DNA from: Octopus sinensis
Lineage: Eukaryota
Length of the DNA stretch: 64,000 nt
Assembly: GCF_006345805.1 (NCBI RefSeq)
Contig: NC_043007.1
Location: 22,940,001 to 23,004,000 of the forward strand
Direction of reading: 5' to 3'
Under the pieces are notes generated by a model that ran no database searches, was not told the origin of the DNA, and was given only the letters and a program-made list of their open reading frames with translations. Positions 1,331 to 55,873 of the stretch are shown here, piece by piece (the first letter of the stretch is position 1; every line of letters begins with the position of its first letter). A program made the translations under genes and the position numbers.

Positions 1331-2455
1331 TTTTGAGATAAAAATGAAGTCTTAGATCTACCAGAATAATTCTACAGATTAAGTGAATGAGATATGAGAT
1401 GCCAGTCAACTTAAGGAAATTGGCTTAAAGGAAGAATAAATGGAGGGAGAAGTTTAATATGTAAAATATTGATTTTTGGGTGCTGTATTAATGCCATGGT
1501 ACCATTTTACAGCTAGATGGACTGAGCAAATTTAGTTGTAACTATAAACATTGAACAGCTGTAGGATATAAACCATTTAGTGTTTTGGTGGTATTAGTCT
1601 GACAGTTTACTGAGCAATTGGTGGCTGCCCACCATTGGCGTAGCTTTGACCCTCTGACATCCAACTGGCACAGTTAGTAATGGGCCCCACGTTAAAAGTG
1701 ACCCTAGGTTAAACCACAGAAAGATATCTTCTAAATTTGGTGCATATAATCAGCTGACTAGGTAACCAGAAAACGAAAATGTAACAAATCAGCAGAAAAA
1801 AGATCTGGATTTTGTGGGTGTCTGCGAATGATGGTGTGTGTGAAAGAGAGGGTGGGATGACTGGATAGGGGTGAGTGAAATAACCGTTGCAGACAGATTA
1901 CTCACTGGGGATAAAATATGGCCAGGAATGGAGCAAAGGAAGATGGAATTAACTAACATGGTTCCCTGTGGTATTGTTGTTGTTTAACCAAGGTCAGACT
2001 TGGTCAAGCAGATCTATGTTCACAGGTATTCCAAGAATGACCATAACACCTCTCCCTTTTCTCTTTCAGCAATAGAAATACTCTGGACTACATTATCCAA
2101 CGTGTCCTTTTTTTTTCAGTAAGAGAGTGGTGTAGTTTGGAGGGAGACTTAGCTGGTGTTTCTAGCAGATCAAGCAACCATGTAGAGGCCACATTGTTGG
2201 GTCATAGTCCAGAATATAAGACACAGTAGGTTAAGAGGAATAGGGGATGAGGTGAAATATGGTGAATCAATGAATGGGGGCAGATGTAGGAGGGATGGTC
2301 ATTATGGAGATTAGGTCATTGGATCTAGATTAAAATTTTGTCAATAAAACATGGATACTTTATGGCAGATATAGCATGCACATACACAGCAGACATGCAT
2401 ATACTTATATCTATATGTGTGTGTGTATATACACACACACATGTATATTTTATAT

Positions 2456-2511
<56 letters not shown>

Positions 2512-2536
2512 CATACATATATATTATGCAAATATA

Positions 2537-3811
2537 CAAGGGAGTGCTGAAAAGTTCCTTTAAAAGTATTGTGAAAGGGTAGGGCTCTCTTGTAAAGGTA
2601 CAAGGGAGGTAGGACAACTGTTTAGGAGAAAATATGTAAAAAATCATGATGGTATACAATATATCATTCCCCTTTTTTGCAGATTTAGCACAAGGTGGCA
2701 GTTCCTACAGTAGATTTTGAAAAACTGAAGCACAGGTGGTCATGAAGTTTCTCTTTTTGAGAGGCAAAGGAGTGGCAGAAATCCATGATGAGATGAAAAA
2801 AAGACTTGAAGGATGGCTGCCCATCTTACTCCACAGTGAAAATTTGGGTGTCAAGGTTTTTTGGTCTGGTCATTTCAGGGTCACAGATGAACCCCAGTCA
2901 GAATGGCCAACTTTTGCAACTGCCAACACTGTGCATGTCATGATTCTCGAGGACTGCTGGATTTCAGCCGAAGATATAGCTGAGACTCTGGGGATTTCCT
3001 GCGAAAGAGTTAGGCACATCGTCCACGACATTCAAGACGTGAGAAAGCTTTCCACAAAACGGGTGCTGAAATGCCTGGATGCAGACCAGAGAACATCAGA
3101 GTGACAACTACATAAGTGATTTTGGACCAGTTTGCAACAGGAGAGGCTGATTTTATGGCTTGTTTAGTCACCAAACTTGGCTTCATCATTATGATTCCCA
3201 GACCAAGCAGCAATCAATGGAGTGACACCACAGCTGTTCACCATGTCCCAAGAAGTTTTGGACCCAGAAGCCAGTTGGAAGAATTCTGGCTTCAGAGTTC
3301 CGGGACAAAGATGGAGCACTCCTCATAAAATATCTGCCAAAGAGTCACACCATCTATGCAGAATACTACAGGTCTCTGTTGGATGAACCGCATGAAGTTT
3401 TGAAACAGAAACACCATGGAAAGCGGAGCAGTGGAGTCCTGTTTTTGCAGGACAATGCAACATCATGCACAACACATGACCTCTATGGAAAATACGTGAC
3501 TTTGGCTTCGAATTGGTAGACCACCTGTCTTACTCACCTGACCTGGCTCCCTCTGATTATCATCTCTTTCCACAACTGAAGAAACATCTCAAGGAATTGA
3601 AATTTCACTCTTATTCTGAAGAGATCACTGCTACAGAGGCCTGGTCGGAGACTCAACCTTCCAACTTCTTTTACAGGGCTTAGAAAAACTGAAGGACTGC
3701 TGCAATAAATTTGTGAATCTGAGAAGGGGGAATATGTTGAGTAAAATCATGATTAACTGATCCTCCTGTATTTTCTTTTACCCAAAGCCTCCAACTTTCA
3801 GAACTCCTTTG
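2537..3811 (+). mobile_element. Degenerate full-length mariner-family DNA transposon
   Basis: Imperfect TIRs CAAGGGAGTGCTGAAAAGTT / AACTTTCAGAACTCCTTTG. Frameshifted transposase remnants: N-terminal HTH (KFLFLRGKGVAEIH), ISAEDIAETLGIS, FLQDNA, YSPDLAPSDYHLFPQLKKHL. Confidence 0.9.
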
Positions 3812-23976: not shown

Positions 23977-25150
23977 TAAATTAACTTCGTAGGCATCTCT
24001 TACCATTTGCAGAGATAAAAGAGAAGTTTCTATGTTGTCTACGCGAATTTTATTTGTAATTTTTCAGGAGTTACAGCCAACTTTATAGCTTGTTTCAAGA
24101 ATTCAAGAAGAGAAAAAGAAAAAATACATTTTGCTACACACAAAAAGGTTGGCTGACGCAATTTTAATGTTTAAAAATAAATTTTATGATTAAAAAAAAA
24201 AAGTCTGAAATCAGCGACTGAAATTTAAATAAAGGGTAGACCAACAAGCATATTATAACGATCGCAATAATAGTTATGTTAATGTAAATTAGTAATAAAG
24301 CAAAAGTTAATTATAACTGTGTGTATGTACTGTTAGTGTTTACAACGTCTGTTAGGGTGTGGTGTGTTTATACCAATTTGGCTGCATCGAGAATTTTCGG
24401 TCAATATAAAGATCTTCACTCGTTAAACAAAAACACAGCCTGTGTAGAAAACGAATGTGACAAAAAAAAAATTGCGCAAACGAACCGGGTGGGGGAGGAC
24501 TTTCGGAAAATTCACAAGATCCGATTTTTCCGTCATAACTTTCGGGAAAATGCATATATATATACATTTTCCCGAAAGTTATGACGGAAAAATAGGATCT
24601 ATATATATATATATATATAATATATATATATATATATTGATTTTATTTTTTAACGGAATCCCACGTTTTTTGTTAAGGAGGATCCGATTCTGAAAAAAAC
24701 TGAAATTTTGAAAATGCGATTAAAAAATTTTTTTTTCAGAATCGGATCCTCCATAACCAAAAAACGTGGGATTCCGTAAAAAAAAAAAAATAAAATCAAT
24801 ATATATATCCATTTCCCCGAAAGTTATGACGGAAAAATCTGATTTTGCGAATTTTCCGAAAGTCCTCTCCGCATTCCCCAGGTTCGTTTGCGCAGTTTTT
24901 TTTTGTCATTCGTTTTCTACACAGTTATTAACACCCAACAGGCTACTTTTTTTTTCTCTTTTTTTGGTTTTTGTTAACGGGTGAAGATCTTTATATTAAC
25001 CGAATTTTCCTCCATGACAAGATACAGAATGTGTGTGTGTGTGTGTGTATATATATACACACACAAATTACAACTAAAATTCGCTTAGACAACTAAGAAA
25101 CTTCTCTTTTATCTCTGCAAATGGTAAGAGATGCCTACGAAGTTAATTTA
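23977..25150. mobile_element. ~1.2-kb foldback-type element with nested inverted repeats (NHLRC2 intron 1)
   Basis: ~85-bp terminal inverted arms (TAAATTAACTTCGTAGGCATCTCTTACC...). Internal inverted blocks ~24390-24560 vs 24790-25005 and ~24652-24697 vs 24731-24778. Confidence 0.75.
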
Positions 25151-29301: not shown

Positions 29302-29352
29302 GATAGATCGGTAGCCACTACACACATTTTTTTCTCTCCTTGTTTTTTCTGT

Positions 29353-29394
29353 GTCCCTTTCTGTAGAAGAGCGTAGGCTCGAAACGTAAAAGAC
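29353..29394 (+). ncRNA. Ultra-minimal hammerhead-like motif (core variant CUGUAGA)
   Basis: CUUU-CUGUAGA-A-GAGC-GUAG-GCUC-GAAACGUA-AAAG; ACGU palindrome. Sits in a ~180-bp unit between (TA)n tracts. Confidence 0.45.
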
Positions 29395-29485
29395 TTTTTC
29401 AATTCCTGGGCGTTATACTATTACATCTGCTTGTTTTGTACACCTATCTTTGTCTTTTTTTTTCTTGAACTCTCCCTATATAAAT

Positions 29486-32980: not shown

Positions 32981-33011
<31 letters not shown>

Positions 33012-33047
33012 GTGGTGGTGGTGGGGATGTTCGTGGTGGTAGTGGTG

Positions 33048-33079
<32 letters not shown>

Positions 33080-33186
33080 TGGTGGTGGTAGTGGTGGTGG
33101 TGGTAGTAGTAGTAGAAGTAGTAGTAGTAGTAGGTGGTGATGGTGGTGGTGGTGGTGGTGGTGGTGGTAGTAGTAGTAGTAGTAAT
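32897..33186. repeat. Compound (GTA/GGT)n microsatellite
   Basis: Direct inspection; source of the poly-T/H/Y/V ORFs. Confidence 0.95.
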
Positions 33187-34600
33187 GCATTTGAAAGCAT
33201 TGGACCAAGCAACGATTGTGGAGACTGGCAAAGTGACGTGCCAGTGTTGTTGTATTTTTACTTGTCTTATTGCATTGTTCTGAGGTGGGGGAGGAGGAGG
33301 CTGTCATTCTTCTAGCATTGGAGAGAGAGAGAACGCTGTAACTGGTTTCAAAATAATAATGATAACGATGATAATGAGGTTGTTGGCAACTAAACCAGTA
33401 ACCCTCATCAAGCTTGTTTGATGAGGAGGGCGATGTTTGGGCACCCTGGGGATGAGGAACAAGACCTATTTCTTTATTGCCCACAAAGGGCTAAACATAG
33501 AGGGGACAAACAAGGACAGACAAATGGATTAAGTCTATTACAATGACCCCAGTGCGTAACTGGTACTTAATTAATCGACCCCGGAAGGATGAAAGGCAAA
33601 GTCGACCTCGGCGGAATTTGAACTCAGAACGTGATGGCAGACAAAATACCTATTTCTTTTACTACCCACAAGGGGCTAAACATAGAGGGGACAAACAAGG
33701 ACAGACAAACGGATTAAGTCTATTACAGTGACCCCAGTGTGTAACTGGTACTAAATTAATCGACCCCGGAAGGATGAAAGGCAAAGTCGACCTCGGCGGA
33801 ATTTGAACTCAGAACCTAACGGCAGACGAAATACCACTAAGCATTTCGCCCAGCGTGCTAATGTTTCTGCCTGCTCGCCGCCTTCATGAGGAACAAGACC
33901 TGTCAAAGGTTGGATGAACACATGAGAATCAATGGCCATCCGATTGTGTATATATGAGAGTTGGTTGTGTGGATTCTCTGAGCCTTGGTTCACAACCCAC
34001 TTAAGAGGGGAAACGAACAGTACATGAAGAATTGTCACAAAGCAGGGTGCTATTAAAGACAAAAATTGAAAAGATGTGATGCTAGATGCAAGGGTTAGAA
34101 GACTACTTTCGGGGGAAATAGAGGGAGAACTACATATGGTGAGTGTTGGCAACATGGGGGGCATCTGTCCATTGAAAATTCACCTCAGCAAACTTTGTCC
34201 AATTCATGCAAGCTTGGAAAAAGTGGTTAAAATGATGACGACGATGCTGCCGCTTTACCAACAACATCATAGTTGTAACAACTGTGACGTTATTGGTAAA
34301 ACATGTTCTTTATCTATCTCCTTAACTTCTTGCAGATCTTAAGTAAAATTATACTAGTGTGCCCTTCTAATTTAATTAAATTCTATGTCTTTGTGCAGCT
34401 AAAGATTGCTCTACATTTTAAATTGATGTAATGAAATGATTGCATTGTTCAATTAAAAGGAGTTGCATGAAACGATCGTACTGCATTACCTCTGGATATC
34501 CTTGTTGCTTATTTTGATTATAATCACCTTATTTTGAAATTGTATGGATAATACCGTACTAAATTCTGGTGCCTCAACTCAAGTACCATATTCATCTGAA

Positions 34601-34671
<71 letters not shown>

Positions 34672-34675
34672 TATA

Positions 34676-35667
34676 CTAGCAGTATCGCCCGGCGTTGCTC
34701 GGGTTTGTAAGGGAAATAACTATAAGCATTTTTAGAGAGTTATAGCCAAAAAATAGCAAAAAAATGCATTAAAAACGGAAAAAAAATTATAGTAAATTTT
34801 TTTTAAATCGTTGACTCATCATAGACATTTTTAGAGAGAGTTACTTCCCTTGTATAATAGCAAAAAAATGCATTAAAATGGAAAAAAATGATGGTAAATT
34901 ATTTTTAAAATCGTAGACTCATCGTAGACGCGCGCTAATACCCAGAAGGGCTCGATATGAATCACGACTATAAGATACCCGGTTTTGGTTAAACTGCACC
35001 ACAAAATGTGGGAGTAGTTAGGAATCTAAATCGTAGGAGACAGACACTCACACAACTTCACTTTTATAGATATAGATATATATATGTACGAGCAAAATGC
35101 CGCTCCCACCCCCCCGTCCATTGGATGATGCTGAGTTGTCAAACATTTAAACCAAATTTTCTCAAAACAATTTGTCTGACCATCCCATAGGCCTCTCCTT
35201 TGAGAAACTGATTTAATCTAAATTTGAGACACCAGCAAAAGTAGAAATAAAGATGACTTTTTTTTTTCTATTCCAAAGAAAAACGATTTTATTCACACAA
35301 ATATGCAACCGAAGAGTTTAAAGTACCAGTAATGATAAGGCTGTTGACTGGGAGAACACAAACATGGTTTAAACAGTAAGCTTGGCAAGAAAGAAACGAA
35401 GTTAAGGCAAAATAATTTCTGACAGACAGAACGGATTTTATATAGCAGCTGATGTACTTGCGTGTACAAATGCACGTTCCCATGGCTTTATCGATCACAT
35501 TCTCACCTGGAATCGATTTTTGTAATTTTTTCAAGACTTATACACACCCTGATATCATTGGTATCTACATATCAAATTTGAGTGCAATCAGATGGAGGAT
35601 GCCCAAGATCCTACAAGACACACAGACAGACAGACAGAACAGATTTTATACAATATATATATATATA

Positions 35668-35710
<43 letters not shown>

Positions 35711-36700
35711 ATATAATATATATATACTAGCAGTATCGCCCGGCGTTGCTCGGGTTTGTAAGGGAAATAACTATAAAGCATTTTTAGAGAGTTATAGCCA
35801 AAAAATAGCAAAAAAATGCATTAAAAACGGAAAAAAAATTATAGTAAATTTTTTTTAAATCGTTGACTCATCATAGACATTTTTAGAGAGTTACTTCCCT
35901 TGTATAATAGCAAAAAAATGCATTAAAATGGAAAAAAATGATGGTAAATTATTTTTAAAATCGTAGACTCATCGTAGACGCGCGCTAATACCCAGAAGGG
36001 CTCGATATGAATCACGACTATAAGATATCCGGTTTTGGTTAAACTGCACCACAAAATGTGGGAGTAGTTAGGAATCTAAATCGTAGGAGACAGACACTCA
36101 CACAACTTCACTTTTATAGATATAGATATATATATACGAGCAAAATGCCGCTCCCACCCCCCCGTCCATTGGATGATGCTGAGTTGTCAAACATTTAAAC
36201 CAAATTTTCTCAAAACAATTTGTCTGACCATCCCATAGGCCTCTCCTTTGAGAAACTGATTTAATCTAAATTTGAGACCCAGCAAAAGTAGAAATAAAGA
36301 TGACTTTTTTTTTCTATTCCAAAGAAAAACGATTTTATTCACACAAATATGCAACCGAAGAGTTTAAAGTACCAGTAATGATAAGGCTGTTGACTGGGAG
36401 AACACAAACATGGTTTAAACAGTAAGCTTGGCAAGAAAGAAACGAAGTTAAGGCAAAATAATTTCTGACAGACAGAACGGATTTTATATAGCAGCTGATG
36501 TACTTGTGTGTACAAATGCACGTTCCCATGGCTTTATCGATCACATTCTCACCTGGAATCGATTTTTGTAATTTTTTCAAGACTTATACACACCCTGATA
36601 CCATTGGTATCTACATATCAAATTTGAGTGCAATCAGATGGAGGATGCCCAAGATCCTACAAGACACACAGACAGACAGACAGAACAGATTTTATACAAT
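34676..36700 (-). repeat. Tandem duplication (period 1051 bp) of two head-to-tail Helitron-like non-autonomous elements
   Basis: Units start at 34676 and 35727 and are nearly identical. Each is a TC...hairpin(CCCGAGCAACGCCGGG)-CTAG element (34676-35076; 35727-36126) plus a second element (35088-35650; 36136-36696) also present at 12329-12711. Confidence 0.8.
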
Positions 36701-36720
36701 ATATATATATATAATATATA

Positions 36721-36757
<37 letters not shown>

Positions 36758-36800
36758 TAAATAAATGGAGTTGAACGCAGATGTTATTCAAATTCTTTTA

Positions 36801-36886
36801 CTTTCAACATATGTTTCGAAGACAACATTGGTTTTATTCCAAAGGAATAAACTGTGTAAAATAATGCAACCTTCTCATCAGGAAAG
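36801..36886 (-). ncRNA. Minimal type-I hammerhead ribozyme motif with extended stem II
   Basis: Minus strand: CUUUC-CUGAUGA-GAAG...CUUC-GAAAC-AUAU-GUU-GAAAG. 5-bp stem I; long stem II with inner hairpin UUUAUUCC/GGAAUAAA; palindromic stem III ACAUAUGU. Confidence 0.7.
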
Positions 36887-37092
36887 ATAAACAAAGGATA
36901 ATTCATTCATCCATTTACATATATATATATAAATTATTTTTGTTAAGAAAAACAGAAAGTTGCTAATTTCAAGCATTTGCTAGGGCTATTGATAATGCCA
37001 AAAGTGAAGCAATTCCATGATATCAATCAAAGCCACAGCTGTGGGACCAACTGCTTCCCTTCATGCCTCCTATCACTCAAACCCAGAATACA

Positions 37093-37338
37093 TTATCCAA
37101 CTATATTTCGATCTCTTATGACTCCAGCTTCATGTAGAGACATTAGCAGAGCCTTCACGAACATCACCAGTTGACCATGGGGACTATTCTTCCCTTCGTA
37201 ATCATGGGTGTGCAGCAGTTTAATTGCTTCTCGGCTGAGTTTGGTGAACAGGCTCAGCACGCGATTGAGATCCTTCATGCCAAATGAGTCTGCTGCTCCA
37301 ACCAGCTGCCAGATGTGGTTAATTGTTGAGGATGTATC
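37093..37338 (-). CDS. Orphan secreted protein, terminal coding exon
   Basis: tattttgcag|GAT ACA...GGA TAA; 81 aa of non-repetitive, amphipathic-helix-like sequence; AATAAA on the minus strand at 36838-36833. Confidence 0.75.
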   Translation of the reverse strand, partial: DTSSTINHIWQLVGAADSFGMKDLNRVLSLFTKLSREAIKLLHTHDYEGKNSPHGQLVMFVKALLMSLHEAGVIRDRNIVG

Positions 37339-37604
37339 CTGCAAAATAGCATGTTAATGATATGTTATGTAAAGTATAGAAGTGTATTACATGATGTGTA
37401 AATATTATCAAGTATTGAGTTTGATATTAATACATAATGGGAATTAATCCATATGTGTTTTTTTAAATGTCAGAAATATCATTTATGCAAGTGGCAATAA
37501 ATCTATCTGTTTTTTTTTTTTTAAATTCTGTTTATATCTCTCCACACATACACATACATACACACATCCCACCTCAAATATATATGTGTACACACACACA
37601 CACA

Positions 37605-37923
37605 CGATGGTGGCGGTGACAGTGGCGATGGCGGTGGTGGCTGTGGTGGTGGTGGTGGTGATGGTGGTATTAGTTTTGGTGGTGGTGGCTGTGGTGGTGG
37701 TGGTGGCGGTGGTGGCGGCAGCGGTGATGGCTGTGGTGGTGGTGGTGGTGATGGTGGTAGTAGTTTTGGTGGTGGTGGCTGTGGTGGTGGTGGTGGTGGC
37801 GGCAGCGGTGGTGGCTGTGGTGGTGGTGGTGATGGTGGTGGTGATGGTGGTGGTGGCGGCGGCGGTGGCGGTGGTGGCGGTGGCGGTGGCGGCGGCGGCA
37901 GCGGTGGTGGTGGTGGTGGTGGC
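37605..37923. repeat. Compound (GGT/GGC/GAT)n microsatellite
   Basis: Direct inspection; source of the poly-P/T/V ORFs. Confidence 0.95.
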
Positions 37924-38529
37924 ATGAGTTAGATAGTTATACATGGTTCTAATGAGTCAAGGACTGTATTGTACACCAGTATCTGCTTTGGTATGGTCCC
38001 TATGGCTGGATGCCCTTATTAGCACCCATGTGTATTGGGTGCTTTCTTTGTGCCACTGGCACTCTTGGGGTCACCATGTAGCTTGCAAGTCAACGATTCC
38101 AGGGCAGCAGGATGTTCGATGGGGATTAAAGTATAAAGGAAGAGATTAGTGGGCAGCAGCTACAAGACTATTCACCTTTACAAGAGAGAATAAAAATGAA
38201 TTAGAAATATCTGCAAGGAGATGGACAGTGGTGATGAGGTATCCAGAGGGTATCTTAGGTAGCAGGAGTAGTAGTGAGTTGGGTGAATATATGATCATAT
38301 ATGAAAAGGACCCCCATTGGTCATTTGGACCCCAGTTGAGAACCATTGCTTTTAACTGTAGTGTGATTTAAGAGGTATTTGACTGCTATTTCTAGCAACC
38401 AGCTCAACTAACCATGTTAAGGCTTTTTCATCAGCTTGTCCCAGTAGTATTAGATAACCATAGAGGGAAGTGCAGTGTAATGATTATTGTAATGAAAAAT
38501 ATAGTTTGACCAGGTTCTAAAGTACTTAC

Positions 38530-38623
38530 ATTGTTTGAAACAATTTGCATTTCTAAGTGACCAAGTTGAAACTTCAGTTGTTCTATAATTTGGTCAGCCG
38601 TTAGGGACTTCTGAGAAGGGTCA
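38530..38623 (-). CDS. Orphan secreted protein, coding exon 3
   Basis: ttttttcctttcag|T GAC CCT...AAC AAT|gtaagt; DPSQKSLTADQIIEQLKFQLGHLEMQIVSNN; 94 nt, phase 2/0. Confidence 0.75.
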
Positions 38624-38749
38624 CTGAAAGGAAAAAAAGTTGGACAATGAGAGTGTGGCATTGTAATGTGAGCCTAAACTGTGGTAGTGTTGAGTAATAT
38701 GATGTTGTGTTGTATTCATTTATTGTAGTGTAATGTGTAATATATTATA

Positions 38750-39159
38750 CTAGCAGCTAAGCCCAGTTTCACCCGGTCTGTTTGGATAATGTGGCTGTGT
38801 TCATTTTCAGTTAGGCATAATCTATAAGAGCGTTTTTCAACCTTATCATTTCGGGTCCCCTGTTTCGATTGGAGCCTTCAGTTGTATGAAAATTTCCTGA
38901 CCCCACCCCGTCAGAAAACAGCTTCTAAGCAACTGGTTGTTTTATTGGCGGAAGAAAGAGGGGAATTCCATTAGAAGAAGATTTCATCGATTTTCTCCGT
39001 AAGTATGGGGGCTAGGAAAAAACTACAAACCACATTCCAATCTATGCACCTGTCTCCACATGTGTGCCCTTTTTCACTCAAATCCACCCAGCCGTTTGGC
39101 TGTGAACCTCAAGACAAGAAAGAATACAACAATCGTCTATCTCCAATTTATATTATAGA
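38750..39159 (-). mobile_element. Non-autonomous Helitron-like element
   Basis: On minus: A|TCTATAATATAAA...CCGGGTGAAACTGGG...CTAG|T (TC start, subterminal hairpin, CTAG end, AT target). Confidence 0.7.
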
Positions 39160-39331
39160 TTAAACATAGGCACAGGAGTGGCTGTGTGGTAAGCAGCTGC
39201 TTATCAATCACATGGTTCCGGGTTCAGTCCCCTGCGTGGCACCTTGGGCAAGTGTCTTCTACTATAGCCTCGGGCCGACCAAAGCCTTGTGAGTGGATTT
39301 GGTAGACGGAAACTGAAAGAAGCCCGTCGTA

Positions 39332-39365
<34 letters not shown>

Positions 39366-39811
39366 CGTGTATGTTTGTGTGTCTGTGTTTGTCCCCCCCC
39401 CAACATCACTTGACAACTGATGGTGGTGTGTTTACATCCCTCTAACTTAGTGGTTCGGCAAGAGATACTGATAGAATAAGTACCAGGCTTACAAAGAATA
39501 AGTCCTGGGGTCGATTTGCTCGACTAAAAAGGTGGTGCTCCAGCATGGCTTCAGTCAAATGGCTGAAACAAGTAAAAGAGTAAAGGAGTAGGCATGGCTG
39601 TGTGGTAAGAAGTTTGCTTCCCAACCACATGGTTCTAGGTTCCATACCACTGTGTTTCACTTTGTCTTTTACTAAACCTTCATACATAGATGCATACATA
39701 AACACATACATGCTTGCTTACAAACATACATATACATATATTGATAGCTATATACATAAATTCACTCATGCATGCATACATGCATACATATATAAACACG
39801 TACTTACATAC

Positions 39812-39842
<31 letters not shown>

Positions 39843-40172
39843 CTTGCTTGCATACATACCCTTTTATATATTAAGAGTGTAGCATGGCTGTAGTATGATG
39901 TAATGCTGTAGATATTTTATTCTGAGATGTGGGCTGGGAAAATATATTCTGAGATAATTGTACTTCATACAAAGAGAAGCAGAAACCTATTTGTATTACC
40001 TGTTCACTTTGTCAGAAACATCTGTTTCTTGTATAATTTCATGTTGCGGTTTACTGGAGTGTATCAAATACTGGTCCGGCTTCTCTCTGCCAAGGAAAAT
40101 ATCACAATGCATCAACGAACCTTCCTTTCCCAGCTTTTGTTTTTTACTCCCCACTCTCTGTCTCACACCATA

Positions 40173-40270
<98 letters not shown>

Positions 40271-40348
40271 CTCCCAACTCTGTCTCACTCCATATATGTG
40301 TGTGTGCATGTGTGTATAAATATATATATGTATATATGTGTATATATA

Positions 40349-40381
<33 letters not shown>

Positions 40382-40430
40382 GAATACACACACACACACA
40401 TATATATATATAGCCACTCTGTATCTCTCC

Positions 40431-40478
<48 letters not shown>

Positions 40479-40640
40479 GTATATATGTGTGTGTGTATGT
40501 ATACACACACACACATATTATAAATACATATTATATATATTATAGTTCAAAACTGAACAAAGAAACAAAACAGATGACAGAGACAGGTGAGGGAATAACA
40601 AACAAGATGTATTAGTTTAACACTCAGGGAAAATGGAAGA

Positions 40641-40680
40641 AGTCTATGATGTTTCAAACCTATGCCCTTCTTCAGAAAAG
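40641..40680 (-). ncRNA. Decayed hammerhead-like motif, same family as 29353-29394
   Basis: Minus strand: CUUUU-CUGAAGA-A-GGGCAUAGGUUU-GAAACAUC-AUAGAC. Flanks align by eye with 29330-29460; several differences look like CpG decay. Confidence 0.35.
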
Positions 40681-42274
40681 AATGAGGATGGGAAACAATG
40701 GAGAGAGGAAAGAAAAATGTGTCTGGATTAACGGTTGCATATGTTGAATTGACCAGAAGGAAGGAAGTGGTTGGGGACAAGGGTGGCTAGGGAGACAGCA
40801 GTGAGCTAAGGGAAATAACACAGGACAAATTCTGCTATGTTAAATACCTAACAATAAGAATTCTTGGTTTAGTAAGATCACCTCCTCCTCTAGAGGTTGT
40901 ATCATAATTACCAAATGGCAATGAAAAGTAGCTCCACTTAGGGAGGGGAGATAATCTCAAGTGTCAAGAATTCTCCAGAATAGACATGCCGTTAGGAAAA
41001 AGGAAGGCTTATTGTCTGGATACAAGAGGAGACCCATGGATAAATGTTTCTTATTTCTTTATTGCCCACAAGGGGTTAAACATAGAGAGGATAAACAAGG
41101 ACAGACAAAGGGACTAAGTCGATTATATCAACCCCAGTGCATAACTGGTACTTAATTTATCGACCCCGAAAGGATGAAAGGCAAAGTTGACCTCGGCGGA
41201 ATTTGAACTCAAAACGTTACGGCAGACAAAATGCCTATTTCTTTACTACTCATAAGGGGCTAAACACAGAGGGGACAAACAAGGACAGACAAACGGATTA
41301 ATCAATTACATTGATCCCAGTGCGTAACTGGTACTTAATTTATCGACCCCAAAAAGGATGAAATGCAAAGTCGACCTCGACGGAATTTGAACTCAGAATG
41401 TAACGGCAGACGAAATGCCTATTTCTTTACTACCTACATGGAGCTAAACACAGAGAGGACAAACAAGGACAGACAAACGGATTAAGTTGATTACATTGAC
41501 TCCAGTGCGTAACTGGTACTTAATTTATCGACCCCGAAAGGATGAAAGGCAAAGTCGACCTCAGCGGAATTTGAACTCAGAACGTAGTGGCAGATGAAAT
41601 ACGGCTAGGCATTTCTCCCGGCATGCTAACATTTCTGCCAGCTCACCGCCTTTGCTTTTATTTCTGCTTACTGATACCAGGTTGATAGGTACAAATACAT
41701 AAATTTATATAAAAAATACATAACCTGCGTGGCACCATGGGGAAGTGTCTTCTAATATAGCCTCGGGCCGACCAAAGCCTTGTGAGTGGATTTGGTAGAC
41801 GGAAACTGAAAGAAGCCCGTCGTATATATGTATATATATATATGCATGTGTGTGTTTGTGTGTCTGTGTTTGTCTCCCTAGCATTGCTTGACAACCGATG
41901 CTGGTGTGTTTATGTCCCTGTTACTTAGCGGTTCAGGAAAAGAAACCGATAGAATAAGTACTGGGCTTACAAAAGAATATGTCCTGGGGTCGAGTTGCTC
42001 GATTAAAGGCGGTGCTCCAGCTTGGCCGCAGTCAAATGACTGAAACAAGTAAGAGAGTAAAAGAGTGTAACCTCACAGCATGGTCAGCTAAACACATGTG
42101 ATAGTGCATTCTGAGTTACTGAGTATTATGAGCGGTTGCTGGAATGCATTTTTGTGGTACAAGCAGAATCTCTAACTGATCTCTGGCCTGTGATATCAGA
42201 GAACAATCTGTGATAAGCATAATGTGGTTCACAATTGAGCTTACTGTGTTACACCAGATCAGTGATGAATAAAA

Positions 42275-42657
42275 GGAGGCGCAATGGCCCAGTGGTTAGG
42301 GCAGCGGACTTGCAGTCATAGGATCGCGGTTTCGATTCCCAGACCGGGCGTTGTGAGTGTTTATTGAGCAAAAACACCTAAAGCTCCACGAGGCTCCGGC
42401 AGGGGATGGTGGTGATCCCTGCTGTACTCTTTCACCACAACTTTCTCTCACTCTTACTTCCTGTTTCTGTTGTACCTGTATTTCAAAGGGACGGCCTTGT
42501 CACTCTCTGTGTCACGCTGAATATCCCCGAGAACTACGTTAAAGGTACACGTGCCTGTGGAGTGCTCAGCCACTTACACGTTAATTTCACGAGCAGGCTG
42601 TTCCGTTGATTCAGATCAACCGGAACCCTTGTCGTCGTAACCGACGGAGTGCTTCCA
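42275..42657 (+). mobile_element. tRNA-derived SINE family C (also ~21579-21895 +, 50128-50233 -, 52758-53060 +, 54855-55162 -)
   Basis: GGAGGCGCAATGGCCCAGTGGTTAGGGCAGCGGAC...GGTTTCGATTCC head with A/B boxes; body shared among copies. Confidence 0.8.
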
Positions 42658-42796
42658 TGATGAATAAATAAAATTGATGGGCAAGGTTACACGTACTGGA
42701 AACAGAATATAAACTATCAGCCCTTTGGCTGGTTGCCTAATGCTCTATACAATCAAACAGTTACAAATAAGGATTAGATTCAATTTCAAATATTAC

Positions 42797-42818
42797 CTTC
42801 TTTCGTCATTTCCACAAC
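42797..42818 (-). CDS. Orphan secreted protein, 22-nt microexon
   Basis: tttctttgtttcag|GTTGTGGAAATGACGAAAGAAG|gtaata encodes (G)CGNDER(S). Phase 1/2 is what is needed to join the flanking exons. Confidence 0.68.
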
Positions 42819-44064
42819 CTGAAACAAAGAAAACAACAAATTTTACTATGGTAAGCTGCAACAAAGAAATCCTTTAAGTAATATAAAAGAAAACAAGGAA
42901 GATCTTCAGAGATTTCTTTTAGATTGGAACTTTATCTCTTCTGACAACTTATTATCAAAGCTGTAATGTTGCTAGAGGTGTAAGGGAAATAGACCACCTT
43001 GGGTGAAGCTTTTATGAGGGCAACACTTTTGTATAATCTTATATAGACTGTATAGATCCCAGTCGGGGTAGCAAATTCAAGGGTTGCCCTGAGCAGCACA
43101 CACATTTTAGCTTTGCTACAAGCGACTCTCTATAATAGTCATGGGCACACTGGGGTACAGGGGTTTTCCTGAATGGCATGCCAATAAAAAATTACCTTGA
43201 ATTATTTTAGCTGTACAGCCCACCTAATAATGAACCATGTCTCATGTGGTCTACTTCTCTAAAAACAAAGGTTGCTCGTGCCTGTTATATATGGTAACTC
43301 AACCTTCTAGAAACTGAAACAAGAGGGAGATTTGATCTATTAAGTTCAGCAATCAAATTTCCCTTGAATCACAGGTTATGTTCTTGAAAATAGTATAACA
43401 AATTAGATAACATAGACTTCAATAGACAAAAGACAGGATGGTCTTATGTGGTGACCACCACCACCACCACCAGCTATCAACAACAGCAACAACAACAACA
43501 ACAACAGTACCAACAAGATCAGTAACAAATGCAACAGCAATAGTCACAACAGCAGTACAGAAGCAGCTTCAAGAAAATTATTAACCATCTTACCAACAAT
43601 AACTCTGAGCACCTTTTCAAACTCCACCTATCTAACACCTGTGGACATGTATACAAAGTCAGAAAACAGCACAGCTCCCATGACTTTTGGAAACATTTTT
43701 TCACACTAAGTATTGCTGAAGTATGGAACAAACTGCCAGTATCAGTTGTTAGTTGTTGGAGCATTGCATCCTTCAACACTTCCATGCTTCCTGAGATTCG
43801 CCAACACTACACCTGATTTTCTCCCCTCCATACACACGCAAGCATGTATCTGACTCATACACTGTTCACTTTCCAGACATTTGTACATTACTGCATATGC
43901 TTTATATGCACTTTCTGACAAGTTGTGGTGCACCTGAGCACTGCATACAATAATTTCATTATCATTATAACAAGAACTACAGCCTCATCCATTACAACAA
44001 CAATAACACTTCCATCACTGTAACAATAACTGCCCCCCGGTAACCATTATAATATATAACATAC

Positions 44065-44119
44065 CTGCAGTGTTCTGCCAACAAAACAAAACTGCTGTGA
44101 TAAAAAAGAGGGTCTTCAT
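44065..44119 (-). CDS. Orphan putative secreted protein, coding exon 1 (signal peptide)
   Basis: ttttctattcttttag|CA ATG; MKTLFFITAVLFCWQNTA(G) has a basic residue, hydrophobic core and small residues; donor CAG|GTATGT; 55 coding nt, phase 1. Confidence 0.72.
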
Positions 44120-44303
44120 TGCTAAAAGAATAGAAAAGAAAAAATGCCTGATTTCAGCTGTCCCTTAACATATAACAGCTACTGGTGTGTAGAAGGTGTG
44201 TAGCATGTAGTAATAAGCTACACACACACACACACACACAGGATTCAATTGAATCAGGTACTTAAATGGTATATCTAAATAACAACAGATGGATAATGGT
44301 TCG

Positions 44304-44405
44304 TTTACTACAGCTGTTTCCAACAAGTTTTTTTTTATTGATGAATAGAGATATTATTACATCATGCAAAAAAAAAAAGAAAGAAAACTGTTTTCATCAG
44401 GTGAA
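44304..44405 (-). ncRNA. Partly degenerate type-I hammerhead motif
   Basis: Minus strand: UUCAC-CUGAUGA-AAACAGUUUU...AAAACUUGUUG-GAAAC-AGCU-GUA-GUAAA. Palindromic stem III ACAGCUGU; one mismatch in stem I and one at the base of stem II. Confidence 0.55.
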
Positions 44406-44694
44406 TATACGTGAATTACACATTTAAAACGTTCCAAAAGTCACCAGTTTGTGCCACTTCTTGATATGATTCCTGCACAAAATTTTAGTGAACGCGATAG
44501 AATATATATATATATATGTATGTATATATATATATATATAGTCAAGAAACAAGGGAAGGGATTATTATTTTAGAAGTGGAGATTGTAAATTTGGAAGTTA
44601 TATGATGAGTTAATATAGAGGTTTACAGATTACTAAAGGTCATTTTTAAGGAGTTATATATATGTATGTATATTTATGTATATAAATATATATT

Positions 44695-44742
<48 letters not shown>

Positions 44743-44912
44743 TAAATAAATGGTACAACGAAGTACTGATATTTACTGGAAAATAGCGATCATAATAAAT
44801 ACGACGCTATTGTATAGCTTCACTGCGTATATAGTAGCTAAGACGTGTGTGTGCTACAAACATGAAAAAAATTTGTCTTACCTCTGAAAAATGAAAAACC
44901 TAGAAACGGATA

Positions 44913-44983
44913 ATGCAGGACCGGTTTCAGACTCTTCAAATATGTTTGACAACGTAGATTTGATTTGTCTTCATCAGCTGCAT
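44913..44983 (-). ncRNA. Minimal type-I hammerhead ribozyme motif (Penelope-like-element type), canonical core
   Basis: Minus strand: AUGCAG-CUGAUGA-AGAC[34 nt]GUCU-GAAAC-CG-GUC-CUGCAU. Perfect 6-bp stem I, 4-bp stem II base, palindromic stem III ACCGGU, GUC cleavage triplet. Confidence 0.75.
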
Positions 44984-45744
44984 ATACCTAGACAACATTT
45001 CAAATGTTGCCACATCTATGCCAGTATATATATATATATATATATATATATGTGCAGTTCTATATTTAAGAGACAAGGAATTACTCTTTTACTTGTTTCA
45101 GTCATGTGACTGTGGCCATGCTAGAGCACCACCTTTAGTCGAGCAAATCGACCCCCAGGACTTATTCTTTGTAAGCCTAGTACTTATTCTATAGGTCTCT
45201 TTTGCCGAACTGCTAAGTTACGGGGATGTAAACACACCACCATCGGTTGTCAAGTGATGTTGGGGGTACAAACATGTATGTATGTATGTATGTATGTGTG
45301 TATGTATGTATGTATGTATGCATGTATGCATGTAAGCATGTTTGTAAGTAAGTTTGCATGTATGTATGTGTATGTATGTGTGTATATATGTATGTGTGTA
45401 TGTATGTGTGCATGTATGTATGTATGTATGTATGTATGTATGTATGTATTGAAGGTGACTCTTTGTACCTAACTCAGAACATGCAATTTTAAAAATCCAA
45501 ACCATATAATTACATAGGTTATATATAGCTTATAGTTTATATATATAGCTTATAGTTTATATATAGCATATATGTAGCCTCTTTATCACTGTAATTCAAA
45601 AACATGAAGGATTTATCTCAAAATTGGATTTTATATTTATACATGATGTGTGCGTGTGTGTCTGTGTGCGTGCATATGATATTTGTGTATATTTATGTAT
45701 CTACGCTATATTTTTGAAGTGAATACATATCCATGCTCATAAAT

Positions 45745-55608: not shown

Positions 55609-55873
55609 GGTACTACTTAAGAAGAGTGGTCCCGGTGTGCGCAGTCGCGCATCCGCACTAGCTAGTCGTGACTAGTCGATCCTACAACGATTACCTAGCA
55701 AAGTAAATGAAACACAAAATAAATAATTTTTTAAAAACAAAGTAAATAAAACACAAAAACACAAAGTAAATAAAAGAAAAACACAAAGTAAGGATCGACT
55801 AGTCACGACTAGCTAGCGTGGATGCATGAGTACGTCAGTGCGCGCACCCGGACCACTCTTCCTAAGTAGTACC
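55609..55873. mobile_element. Second copy of the 23044-23298 MITE (opposite orientation)
   Basis: Same TIRs; the internal A-rich spacer is the reverse complement of the T-rich spacer of the first copy. Confidence 0.8.

Follow-up and report, generated by a model that had tools for sequence, protein, structure and literature searches.

The four hammerhead-type motifs that lie on the minus strand at a host gene of Octopus sinensis are very probably sequences of four different dispersed repeat families, likely placed there by independent insertions and likely without a ribozyme role for the gene. They were studied in a stretch of 64,000 nucleotides, hereafter the window, for which an initial annotation had proposed a gene-regulatory switch. 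Since each motif is a copy of a different, widely scattered repeat, ordinary neutral insertion is the likely explanation, rather than such a switch. The hallmarks of insertion that were observed comprise family membership, abundance, (TA)n flanks, variable 5' truncation and inverted junctions, and an RT/endonuclease frame was found upstream of H4-family hammerheads. The motifs (H1 to H4) and their elements are as follows, in window coordinates.

44730..45026, minus strand: H1 element, a 5'-truncated copy of a non-coding tandem unit of ~429 nt, between two (TA)n tracts
44913..44983, minus strand: H1 hammerhead with the palindrome ACCGGU; stem I has 6 bp, and stem II has 4 bp and a long loop; cleavage predicted 3' of C 44919 (GUC)
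44241..44465 (approximate ends), minus strand: H2 element, an old repeat copy with ~80% identity to its own family
44304..44405, minus strand: H2 hammerhead; core and palindrome ACAGCUGU retained, stem I and the closing pair of stem II broken
40545..40807, minus strand: H3 element, an old repeat copy
40641..40680, minus strand: decayed hammerhead of H3; stem II is weakened, and ACAU stands in place of the palindrome ACGU
36745..36887, minus strand: H4 element, located in the 3' UTR of the host gene; 3' terminus of a Hydra-like Penelope-like element (PLE), with a (TA)n tract at its end
36801..36886, minus strand: H4 hammerhead with the palindrome ACAUAUGU; stem I has 5 bp and stem II 6 bp; cleavage predicted 3' of U 36806 (GUU)
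36833..36838, minus strand: first AAUAAA downstream of the stop codon of the host gene; it sits in a hairpin of H4 loop II, 27 nt ahead of the predicted cut
36888..36918, plus strand: inverted piece of 31 nt from the far 3' tail of the H4 family, abutting the 5'-truncated H4 copy in a PLE-type inverted junction

All four cores (CUGANGA...GAAAC) were indeed found on the minus strand where the initial annotation had placed them, starting at 44977 (H1), 44400 (H2), 40675 (H3) and 36881 (H4), and the helix III palindromes of the three best motifs (H1, H2, H4) are distinct, as it had stated. H1 and H4 possess the CUGANGA/GAAA core, an NUH site and paired stems I and II of a type-I hammerhead; H2 and H3 fall short of the full core and stem features. 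Only H3 had been regarded as decayed, which it is, but H2 is decayed as well: its stem I retains only two contiguous pairs, and the closing pair of stem II is mismatched. A hammerhead descriptor returned three matches in the whole window (H1, H2 and H4), while 91 of 100 shuffled sequences gave none and nine gave one. H1 also aligned with Rfam Hammerhead_HH9, scoring 27.2 bits where the gathering score is 52 (E 0.014 over the whole window, 5.8e-5 locally). A local Rfam search gave no hammerhead match for H4, H2 and H3 were absent among the 150 of 211 matches listed in the whole-window search, and none of those listed reached its gathering score, most being microRNA matches on TA/CA repeats. That the motifs are chance matches in AT-rich sequence could be argued from this lack of an Rfam match for H4 and from the failure of H2 and H3 under a strict descriptor; however, the window count exceeds that of every shuffle, the strict descriptor found nine matches in a 400-kb genome sample (forty 10-kb pieces) against none in 10 shuffles, and a common layout recurs in different families although their stem sequences differ. 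Chance matching is thus vanishingly unlikely as a general reading, and is already refuted for H1 and H4. The earlier assignment to type-I hammerheads with a palindromic helix III, of the PLE or retrozyme kind, is supported.

On their 5' side, copies of H4 continue into RT and GIY-YIG-like frames that share the strand of the hammerhead; an early idea, in which the parent frame lay opposite the hammerhead, was rejected accordingly. One frame of 517 aa (L252:3605-5155) ends ~200 nt before an 81%-identical hammerhead, and its relatives of 670-730 aa show full-length alignment and Hydra-clade marks, one of them with a sub-cut-off GIY-YIG match (E 0.0011). Atlas provided RT-like leads for the parent frame. 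A Pfam search with the parent frames themselves returned no RT or GIY-YIG match, and a search for homologs gave none among longer proteins and, at similar length, one Octopus protein with an uninformative name. As in PLEs, the family carries its hammerhead in a terminal repeat on the coding strand, and shows 5' truncation, inverted junction pieces and an optional tail with two 3' ends. The inverted piece was scored in 4 of 15 copies, and the window copy also has one; among 43 distinct records, 10 stop at end 1, 17 read through it (seven of these seen to end ~157 nt later) and 16 do not show end 1. The exact motif pattern, like that of H1 17-18 nt long, had 781 matches and none in the reversed control, and 14 of 15 copies are followed by (TA)5, for which the background is 24%. 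The cut site is GUC in 90 of the first 100 family matches listed, and GUU in the window copy. By inspection, the endonuclease lacks the CCHH motif; the CxCX5C linker is absent from six copies (L078, L086, L087, L092, L094 and L252) and present in relatives, and the copies read are truncated before the DKT motif, which the relatives have. Given the missing linker, we file the putative parent as Hydra-like and not as a Hydra-clade member; its RT motifs were compared with the published alignment by eye.

H1 resembles a non-LTR retrozyme, being a short tandem unit with a type-I hammerhead and no protein-coding frame. Its exact pattern gave 89 matches and none in the reversed control; direct repeats of 410-433 nt occur in 8 of 30 loci, two-hammerhead tandems were found at three places (L023, on C5 and on C6), and (TA)5 follows 26 of 30 copies, against the same background. 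No PLE frame is continuous with the unit in the 30 loci, and a search for an autonomous parent found none; a single weak match (E 0.004) lies ~1.3 kb upstream of the unit in L030, beyond the shared region. A 14-nt terminal motif before (TA)n is common to the H1 unit and the H4 PLE family. First-look candidate counts (855, 548, 2436 and 1913) were rejected as copy numbers, the exact matches of H1 being only 89. For H2 no parent was found, ~600 nt of common upstream sequence having no recognisable frame; the Hydra-like frames that follow it in L248 are unlike those in L249, and both were treated as neighbours. Most H3-family copies have CUGUAGA as the core, and at one locus (L252) the family extends 5' through ~1 kb of CA-rich sequence into a Neptune-type RT remnant (positions 2010-3020, H3 strand), whose motifs resemble, by eye and at this single locus, the Neptune rows of a published alignment. 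The remnant gave no Pfam match, and no endonuclease was found in it. H3 is likely the end of a putative Neptune-type PLE.

The gene itself is modelled here with 159 aa and the following coding exons.

44065..44121, minus strand: exon with the start codon (44119) and, by eye, a hydrophobic N-terminal stretch
40000..40084, minus strand: coding exon modelled from GT-AG sites and frame
38530..38623, minus strand: newly recognised coding exon of 94 nt, spliced to the last exon in RNA-type contigs
37093..37338, minus strand: last coding exon, with the stop codon

The previous figure of 138 aa missed the 94-nt exon, which is joined to the last exon in contigs from three of four runs; the model without it has 137 aa. 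A further, non-coding exon is inferred upstream, because an acceptor-like pyrimidine tract precedes the start-codon exon. None of the listed sequencing runs is recorded as RNA; those used were taken as RNA by guess, with a GT-AG joint as sole support, and reads were examined over 33001-39300, the 5' exons of the gene being outside. H1 and H2 precede the start-codon exon, H3 falls within a modelled intron, and a spliced contig, in one of the four runs (X11), reaches H4 only, to 36818. The initial placement of the motifs in the gene therefore holds as to strand, but spliced RNA places only H4 there. A longer 3' UTR suggested by contigs at 36307-36444 was rejected, as that stretch is repeated and its depth did not track the gene.

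Copies of these families are dense in the genome. The 400-kb sample contained 24 copies at 17 sites, from which octopus hammerhead remnants are estimated at ~100,000 per genome, as an order of magnitude; each of the four motifs retrieves at least 40 scored copies spread over chromosomes, and the window holds two further copies on the plus strand (29343-29400 and 34374-34507). Because of this density, about 80 same-strand clusters of four within 8.2 kb are expected per genome by chance (79; range 10-443), although such a cluster is uncommon per window, at ~0.2% of 64-kb windows. Neighbouring copies of other families were in the same strand in 11 cases and opposite in 13, and the strand-bias check inside genes, as originally suggested, revealed no sense excess (4 sense, 6 antisense; a weak test with 10 copies). 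The window copies are no better preserved than their own families. The fallback reading of the annotation, i.e., neutral insertions into (TA)n that share a strand by chance, is favoured by the evidence. It is to be noted that H1 and H4 retain core, stems and palindrome, which counts against the explanation preferred here, as do the lack of a parent for H1 and H2 and an H3 link from one locus without a Pfam match.

Judging from established PLE biology, reverse transcription would have a fixed starting point immediately 3' of the hammerhead and would frequently halt early, so that most insertions would be short, hammerhead-bearing ends. Where the parent RNA is a tandem, two hammerheads would be paired by the palindromic helix III, but a single copy would lack a partner in cis and show little cleavage. 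In published work, lone minimal PLE hammerheads showed no cleavage and dimers little (PMC4209133), and for an anole PLE no RNA-seq ends fall on the cut site (PMC11167929). The switch originally proposed, in which homodimers of two host-gene transcripts cleave and cap the RNA when it is abundant, draws on the shared strand of motifs and gene, on the inclusion of H4 in the transcript at least to 36818, and on improbable active monomer folds (predicted probability ~2e-7 for H1 and ~2e-4 for H4). Each palindrome is, moreover, predicted to pair with its own kind alone: homo-duplexes have energies of -7.0 to -11.1 kcal/mol, whereas hetero-duplexes reach -2.7 or are weaker, in agreement with the annotation's view that the different palindromes would call for homodimers. 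However, the predicted Kd of the bare palindrome duplexes, ~1e-6 M (H1) and ~1e-5 M (H4), is far above the usual level of a single mRNA, 1000 copies per picolitre being ~2 nM by our own estimate. H2 and H3 are decayed, and at most one motif is in the mRNA; the cut site of that motif, H4, is a derived GUU, and the first poly(A) signal lies within it. Hundreds of other family copies could supply any dimer partner, which would not be gene-specific, since contigs of family-like sequence that come from other loci contribute to the depth over H4 (in sum, 744 versus 21 for the gene's contig in X9, and 654 versus 350 in X1, depth being a poor measure). Chance clusters being also expected at the measured density, a concentration-dependent, self-limiting switch is highly unlikely. 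Family-wide cleavage in trans, whereby the H4 of a nascent or mature transcript pairs, by way of helix III, with RNA from other family copies and is cut upon element de-repression, is likewise quite unlikely: the 781 exact motif copies, the family-like contigs in RNA-type runs and the retained core and stems of H4 speak for it, but the GUU site is derived, the 3' half may be missing from the mature mRNA, and cleavage by PLE hammerheads is slow even in tandem dimers (PMC4209133, PMC6765202).

H4 may have another use, in that its insertion could have been adopted as the 3'-end signal of the gene, the AAUAAA directing polyadenylation 10-30 nt downstream; we regard this as possible, at somewhat less than an even chance. 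The estimate refers to use of the poly(A) signal and is compatible with independent insertion. The hexamer is the first AAUAAA or AUUAAA past the stop codon, the next lying 500 nt on, at 36339; the spliced X11 contig ends at 36818, 14-15 nt beyond it, and exon-overlapping Xenopus retrozymes tend to occupy 3' UTRs (10.64898/2026.07.22.740005). On the other hand, contig ends in repeats are often graph branches, those of X1 and X9 falling at 36888 and that of X17 at 36920; an 8-bp hairpin (-5.7 kcal/mol) is predicted in which the AAUAAA makes up one arm, a non-canonical AAUGAA occurs at 36907, and the signal was inherited with the element rather than made at this gene, since 13 of 14 other H4 copies have it. 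Because the signal sits 27 nt before the cut site, polyadenylation from it would likely leave the mRNA with an incomplete ribozyme; the mature mRNA would in that case end inside the ribozyme, which would then be incidental or at most cut downstream nascent RNA. A composite reading, also of low probability, about that of cleavage in trans, makes the PLE end a 3'-end module, its loop giving the poly(A) signal and its hammerhead, trans-activated by ~800 sister copies, cutting 27 nt downstream in competition with polyadenylation.

Hammerhead_HH9 is a conserved, low-copy element. H1 fits the core, stem I and base of stem III of this amniote intronic family (Rfam RF02275), but its match is under the gathering cut-off and it is a multi-copy mobile repeat. 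The Hydra clade of C-terminal EN+ PLEs includes Hydra-1_Obim of Octopus bimaculoides (Craig et al. 2021, PMC8557442). The H4 parent is similar in RT motifs, which fit the published alignment by eye, in a C-terminal GIY-YIG-like domain without CCHH, in a 3'-end hammerhead and in (TA)n insertion; it differs in missing the CxCX5C linker in the six copies read, and its hammerhead is unlike that of Hydra-1_Obim. Its motifs had no match in the supplement of PMC8557442, where line breaks can hide them. Animal non-LTR retrozymes have units of roughly 200-400 nt (Cervera and De la Pena 2020, PMC7229834; Li et al. 2026, 10.64898/2026.07.22.740005), which H1 resembles in its tandem, non-coding unit, in its canonical-like type-I hammerhead and in occurring as monomers, partial tandems and dimers, although it is slightly larger, has a long insert in loop II and shares its terminal motif with the H4 PLE family. 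Finally, metazoan PLE hammerheads (Cervera and De la Pena 2014, PMC4209133) share the type-I layout, the palindromic helix III and a predicted dimer dependence, and likewise exist in thousands of copies per genome, most of them single; the differences are a long loop II (40-70 nt) and palindromes of 6-8 nt in H1, H2 and H4, and CUGUAGA in most H3-family copies.

The finding is ordinary in that Hydra-clade elements are already listed for Octopus and hammerhead remnants are abundant in octopus DNA. Nonetheless, the 14-nt end in both the H1 unit and the H4 PLE is a sequence-level hint that the PLE moves the retrozyme, and (TA)n is targeted by the H4 PLE family although it lacks the cysteine linker to which the targeting has been ascribed as a proposal. 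If cleavage in trans were true, it would provide a host function for PLE hammerheads; and if the PLE end were a trans-activated 3'-end module, de-repression of the retroelement would be a genome-wide switch on octopus transcripts with such ends.

Inspection confirmed the four minus-strand hammerhead motifs (H1 to H4) at the positions proposed in the initial annotation, including the decay of H3. The motifs and the exons of the gene that hosts them are as follows, with the palindrome forming helix III.

44913-44983, minus strand: H1, core at 44977, stem I of 6 bp, stem II of 4 bp, palindrome ACCGGU, site GUC
44304-44405, minus strand: H2, core (at 44400) and palindrome ACAGCUGU kept, stem I with only 2 contiguous pairs, stem II closed by a mismatch
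40641-40680, minus strand: H3, decayed, core at 40675
36801-36886, minus strand: H4, core at 36881, stem I of 5 bp, stem II of 6 bp, palindrome ACAUAUGU, site GUU
44119-44065, 40084-40000, 38623-38530 and 37338-37093, minus strand: host gene model, 159 aa, last junction from contigs, others modelled

A descriptor scan retrieved 3 motifs in the window; of 100 local shuffles, 91 contained none and 9 contained one. H1 aligned to Rfam Hammerhead_HH9 with a score below the gathering cut-off, while the Rfam search of H4 gave no hammerhead match. The GUU site of H4 contrasts with GUC in 90 of the first 100 family matches listed; GUU sites are cleaved more slowly than GUC. In a check that is rough because best matches served as comparison copies, the window copies were preserved no better than their families, the respective divergences being 0.041 and 0.015 for H1, 0.068 and 0.095 for H2, 0.131 and 0.138 for H3, and 0.054 (inflated by the junction) and 0.023 for H4.

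Contigs of four sequencing runs, presumed to be RNA or of unknown kind, were compared with 33001-39300 only. In three of the four, 37337 was joined to 38529 over a GT-AG intron; the proposed 138-aa product is approached by the model lacking exon 38623-38530 (137 aa), whereas the contig-joined exon makes it 159 aa. The spliced contigs end at 36888 (runs X1 and X9) and 36818 (X11), so that one run places H4 within the 3' UTR at least as far as 36818. Run X11 also carries ~225 nt, without placement, 5' of the start-codon exon, and an acceptor-like tract precedes 44121. Since this sequence is unplaced, H1 and H2 lie either in a 5'-UTR intron, which would end in that tract, or outside the transcript. 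A long GGT/GGC triplet tract occupies 37600-37925 in the last intron, and near-identical repeat copies ~1 kb apart (35260-35640 and 36307-36680) lie 3' of the gene.

All four motifs belong to dispersed repeats, each with at least 40 scored copies elsewhere in the genome; exact-pattern matches numbered 89 for H1 and 781 for H4, against 0 for reversed controls. Family copies have a fixed downstream end and a variable upstream extent, and the nearest named protein matches of the genome's repeats were Octopus proteins. The suggested insertion into (TA)n is supported for H1 and H4, where (TA)5 follows 26/30 and 14/15 copies compared with 24% of random stretches, but H2 (6/15) and H3 (4/10) were not clearly enriched. 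Long inverted-repeat, MITE-like elements also occur in the window, at 24640-24788 and 55630-55870.

The parent of H4 resembles a Penelope-like element (PLE) of the Hydra clade. At locus L252, a related element has a 517-aa frame ending ~200 nt 5' of an 81%-identical hammerhead; this frame has 14 relatives, some of 670-730 aa, and the five aligned carry DKT and a CxCX5C-type linker and lack CCHH, which are Hydra-clade marks in Craig et al. 2021 (PMC8557442), whose supplement already holds Hydra-1_Obim from Octopus. A Pfam search of the H4-parent frames gave no direct match, one relative had a GIY-YIG match below cut-off, and an Atlas search yielded RT-like leads. However, unlike the clade, the present octopus copies lack the linker cysteines, and the parent is therefore filed as Hydra-like rather than as a tested clade member. 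The window copy runs from (TA)n through 31 nt of the far tail of its family, in inverted orientation, and a truncated end to (TA)n, matching the PLE junction pattern described by Craig et al.; a two-ended PLE tail is described in PMC11167929.

The H1 unit measures ~429 nt; 8/30 loci show terminal redundancy or tandems, and no coding frame was found in the 30. It fits a non-LTR retrozyme as described in PMC7229834 and 10.64898/2026.07.22.740005. The same 14-nt motif terminates H1 and H4 ahead of (TA)n, present in 24/30 H1, 13/15 H4, 0/15 H2 and 0/10 H3 copies, and in the window at:

44730-44753: stretch with the shared terminal motif of H1
36745-36768: stretch with the shared terminal motif of H4

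This common motif suggests that an H4-type enzyme mobilises the retrozyme-like H1 unit. A similar motif occurs at a second H4 end, 157 nt further. Opposite an H1 copy, the GIY-YIG endonuclease terminus of a further PLE lies at L002:237-659 (Pfam E 3.8e-6), with a hammerhead-like motif, by eye, near 1150. H3 copies have in common ~1 kb of CA-rich upstream sequence, which in one locus runs to an RT remnant resembling, by eye, Neptune rows. Among H3-like cores (L062-L075 and L219-L247), 13/15 read CUGUAGA, 1 CUGUUGA and 1 CUGAAGA; U at core position 6 is thus carried by a large family, as judged from sequence. No parent element was found for H2. At L111:2750-5318 (G000:C1:135000001-135010000), a tandem array of period 535 nt holds six identical intact hammerheads with palindrome ACAAUUGU in two orientations, and looks like a young retrozyme array.

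Chance probably accounts for the clustering on one strand. Forty 10-kb stretches at chosen round coordinates on 18 chromosomes gave 9 strict-descriptor matches, against 0 in 10 shuffles, and 24 copies by homology, merged by hand into 17 sites. This extrapolates to ~115,000 sites genome-wide and to 79 (10-443) clusters per genome in which four copies lie on one strand within 8.2 kb, or ~0.2% of 64-kb windows. The window holds six copies against 2.7 expected (p 0.06), and the background is probably under-counted, as the seed library is rich in the window's families. Two of the hammerhead-family copies, at 29343-29400 and 34374-34507, lie on the plus strand past the host gene's 3' end. Around 63 focal copies, other families occurred at twice the background density, with 11 copies sharing the focal strand and 13 on the other. 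For genes, forty further stretches were drawn from 134 kinase and 57 helicase matches, with unplaced contigs and whole-domain matches dropped; stretches may reach outside the gene, and 4/40 extend or neighbour chosen genes. Their 10 copies (4 sense, 6 antisense) revealed no strand bias, at low power, and their lower density agrees with the depletion near exons reported for Xenopus in 10.64898/2026.07.22.740005. On unplaced contigs of assembly G000 such as C6303, C8702, C9497 and C8460, many kinase and helicase matches are densely packed and broken by short segments containing stops, in contrast to the chromosomes, and may represent a compact foreign genome within the assembly.

The proposed homodimer switch, self-limiting with transcript concentration, was unsupported, although its premise that different palindromes pair only like with like was borne out: predicted homo-duplexes reached -8.3 (H1), -11.1 (H2) and -7.0 kcal/mol (H4), and mixed pairs -2.7 or weaker. 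For the two intact motifs (H1, H4) the predicted Kd falls around 1e-6 to 1e-5 M, and hundreds of other loci carry like partners. Lone copies fold poorly, with predicted active-fold probabilities of ~2e-7 (H1) and ~2e-4 (H4); in published assays, single minimal PLE hammerheads did not cleave and dimers did so little (PMC4209133; PMC6765202). In tandem RNA of the parent, the palindromes would bring two hammerheads together. The first AAUAAA 3' of the stop codon lies in H4 loop II, 27 nt before the predicted cut, and polyadenylation 10-30 nt past it would mostly remove the ribozyme's 3' half. That the host gene uses this signal is a possibility we rate slightly below even, because a hairpin is predicted to enclose the signal and the contig may stop there at a branch of the assembly graph.

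PLE hammerheads, retrozymes and Hydra elements in Octopus are already known kinds. The present families were undescribed in the literature matches listed (octopus/cephalopod hammerheads, Octopus Penelope, hammerhead poly(A)), and repeat libraries or other supplements may contain them; an Octopus vulgaris repeat paper leaves ribozymes unmentioned in its main text (PMC13282606). Overall, the motifs are real, their origin is ordinary and a regulatory switch is unsupported. For the Hydra-like elements, a family lacking the CxCX5C linker (L078, L086, L092, L094, L252) is yet located in (TA)n, which counts against this linker doing the targeting.
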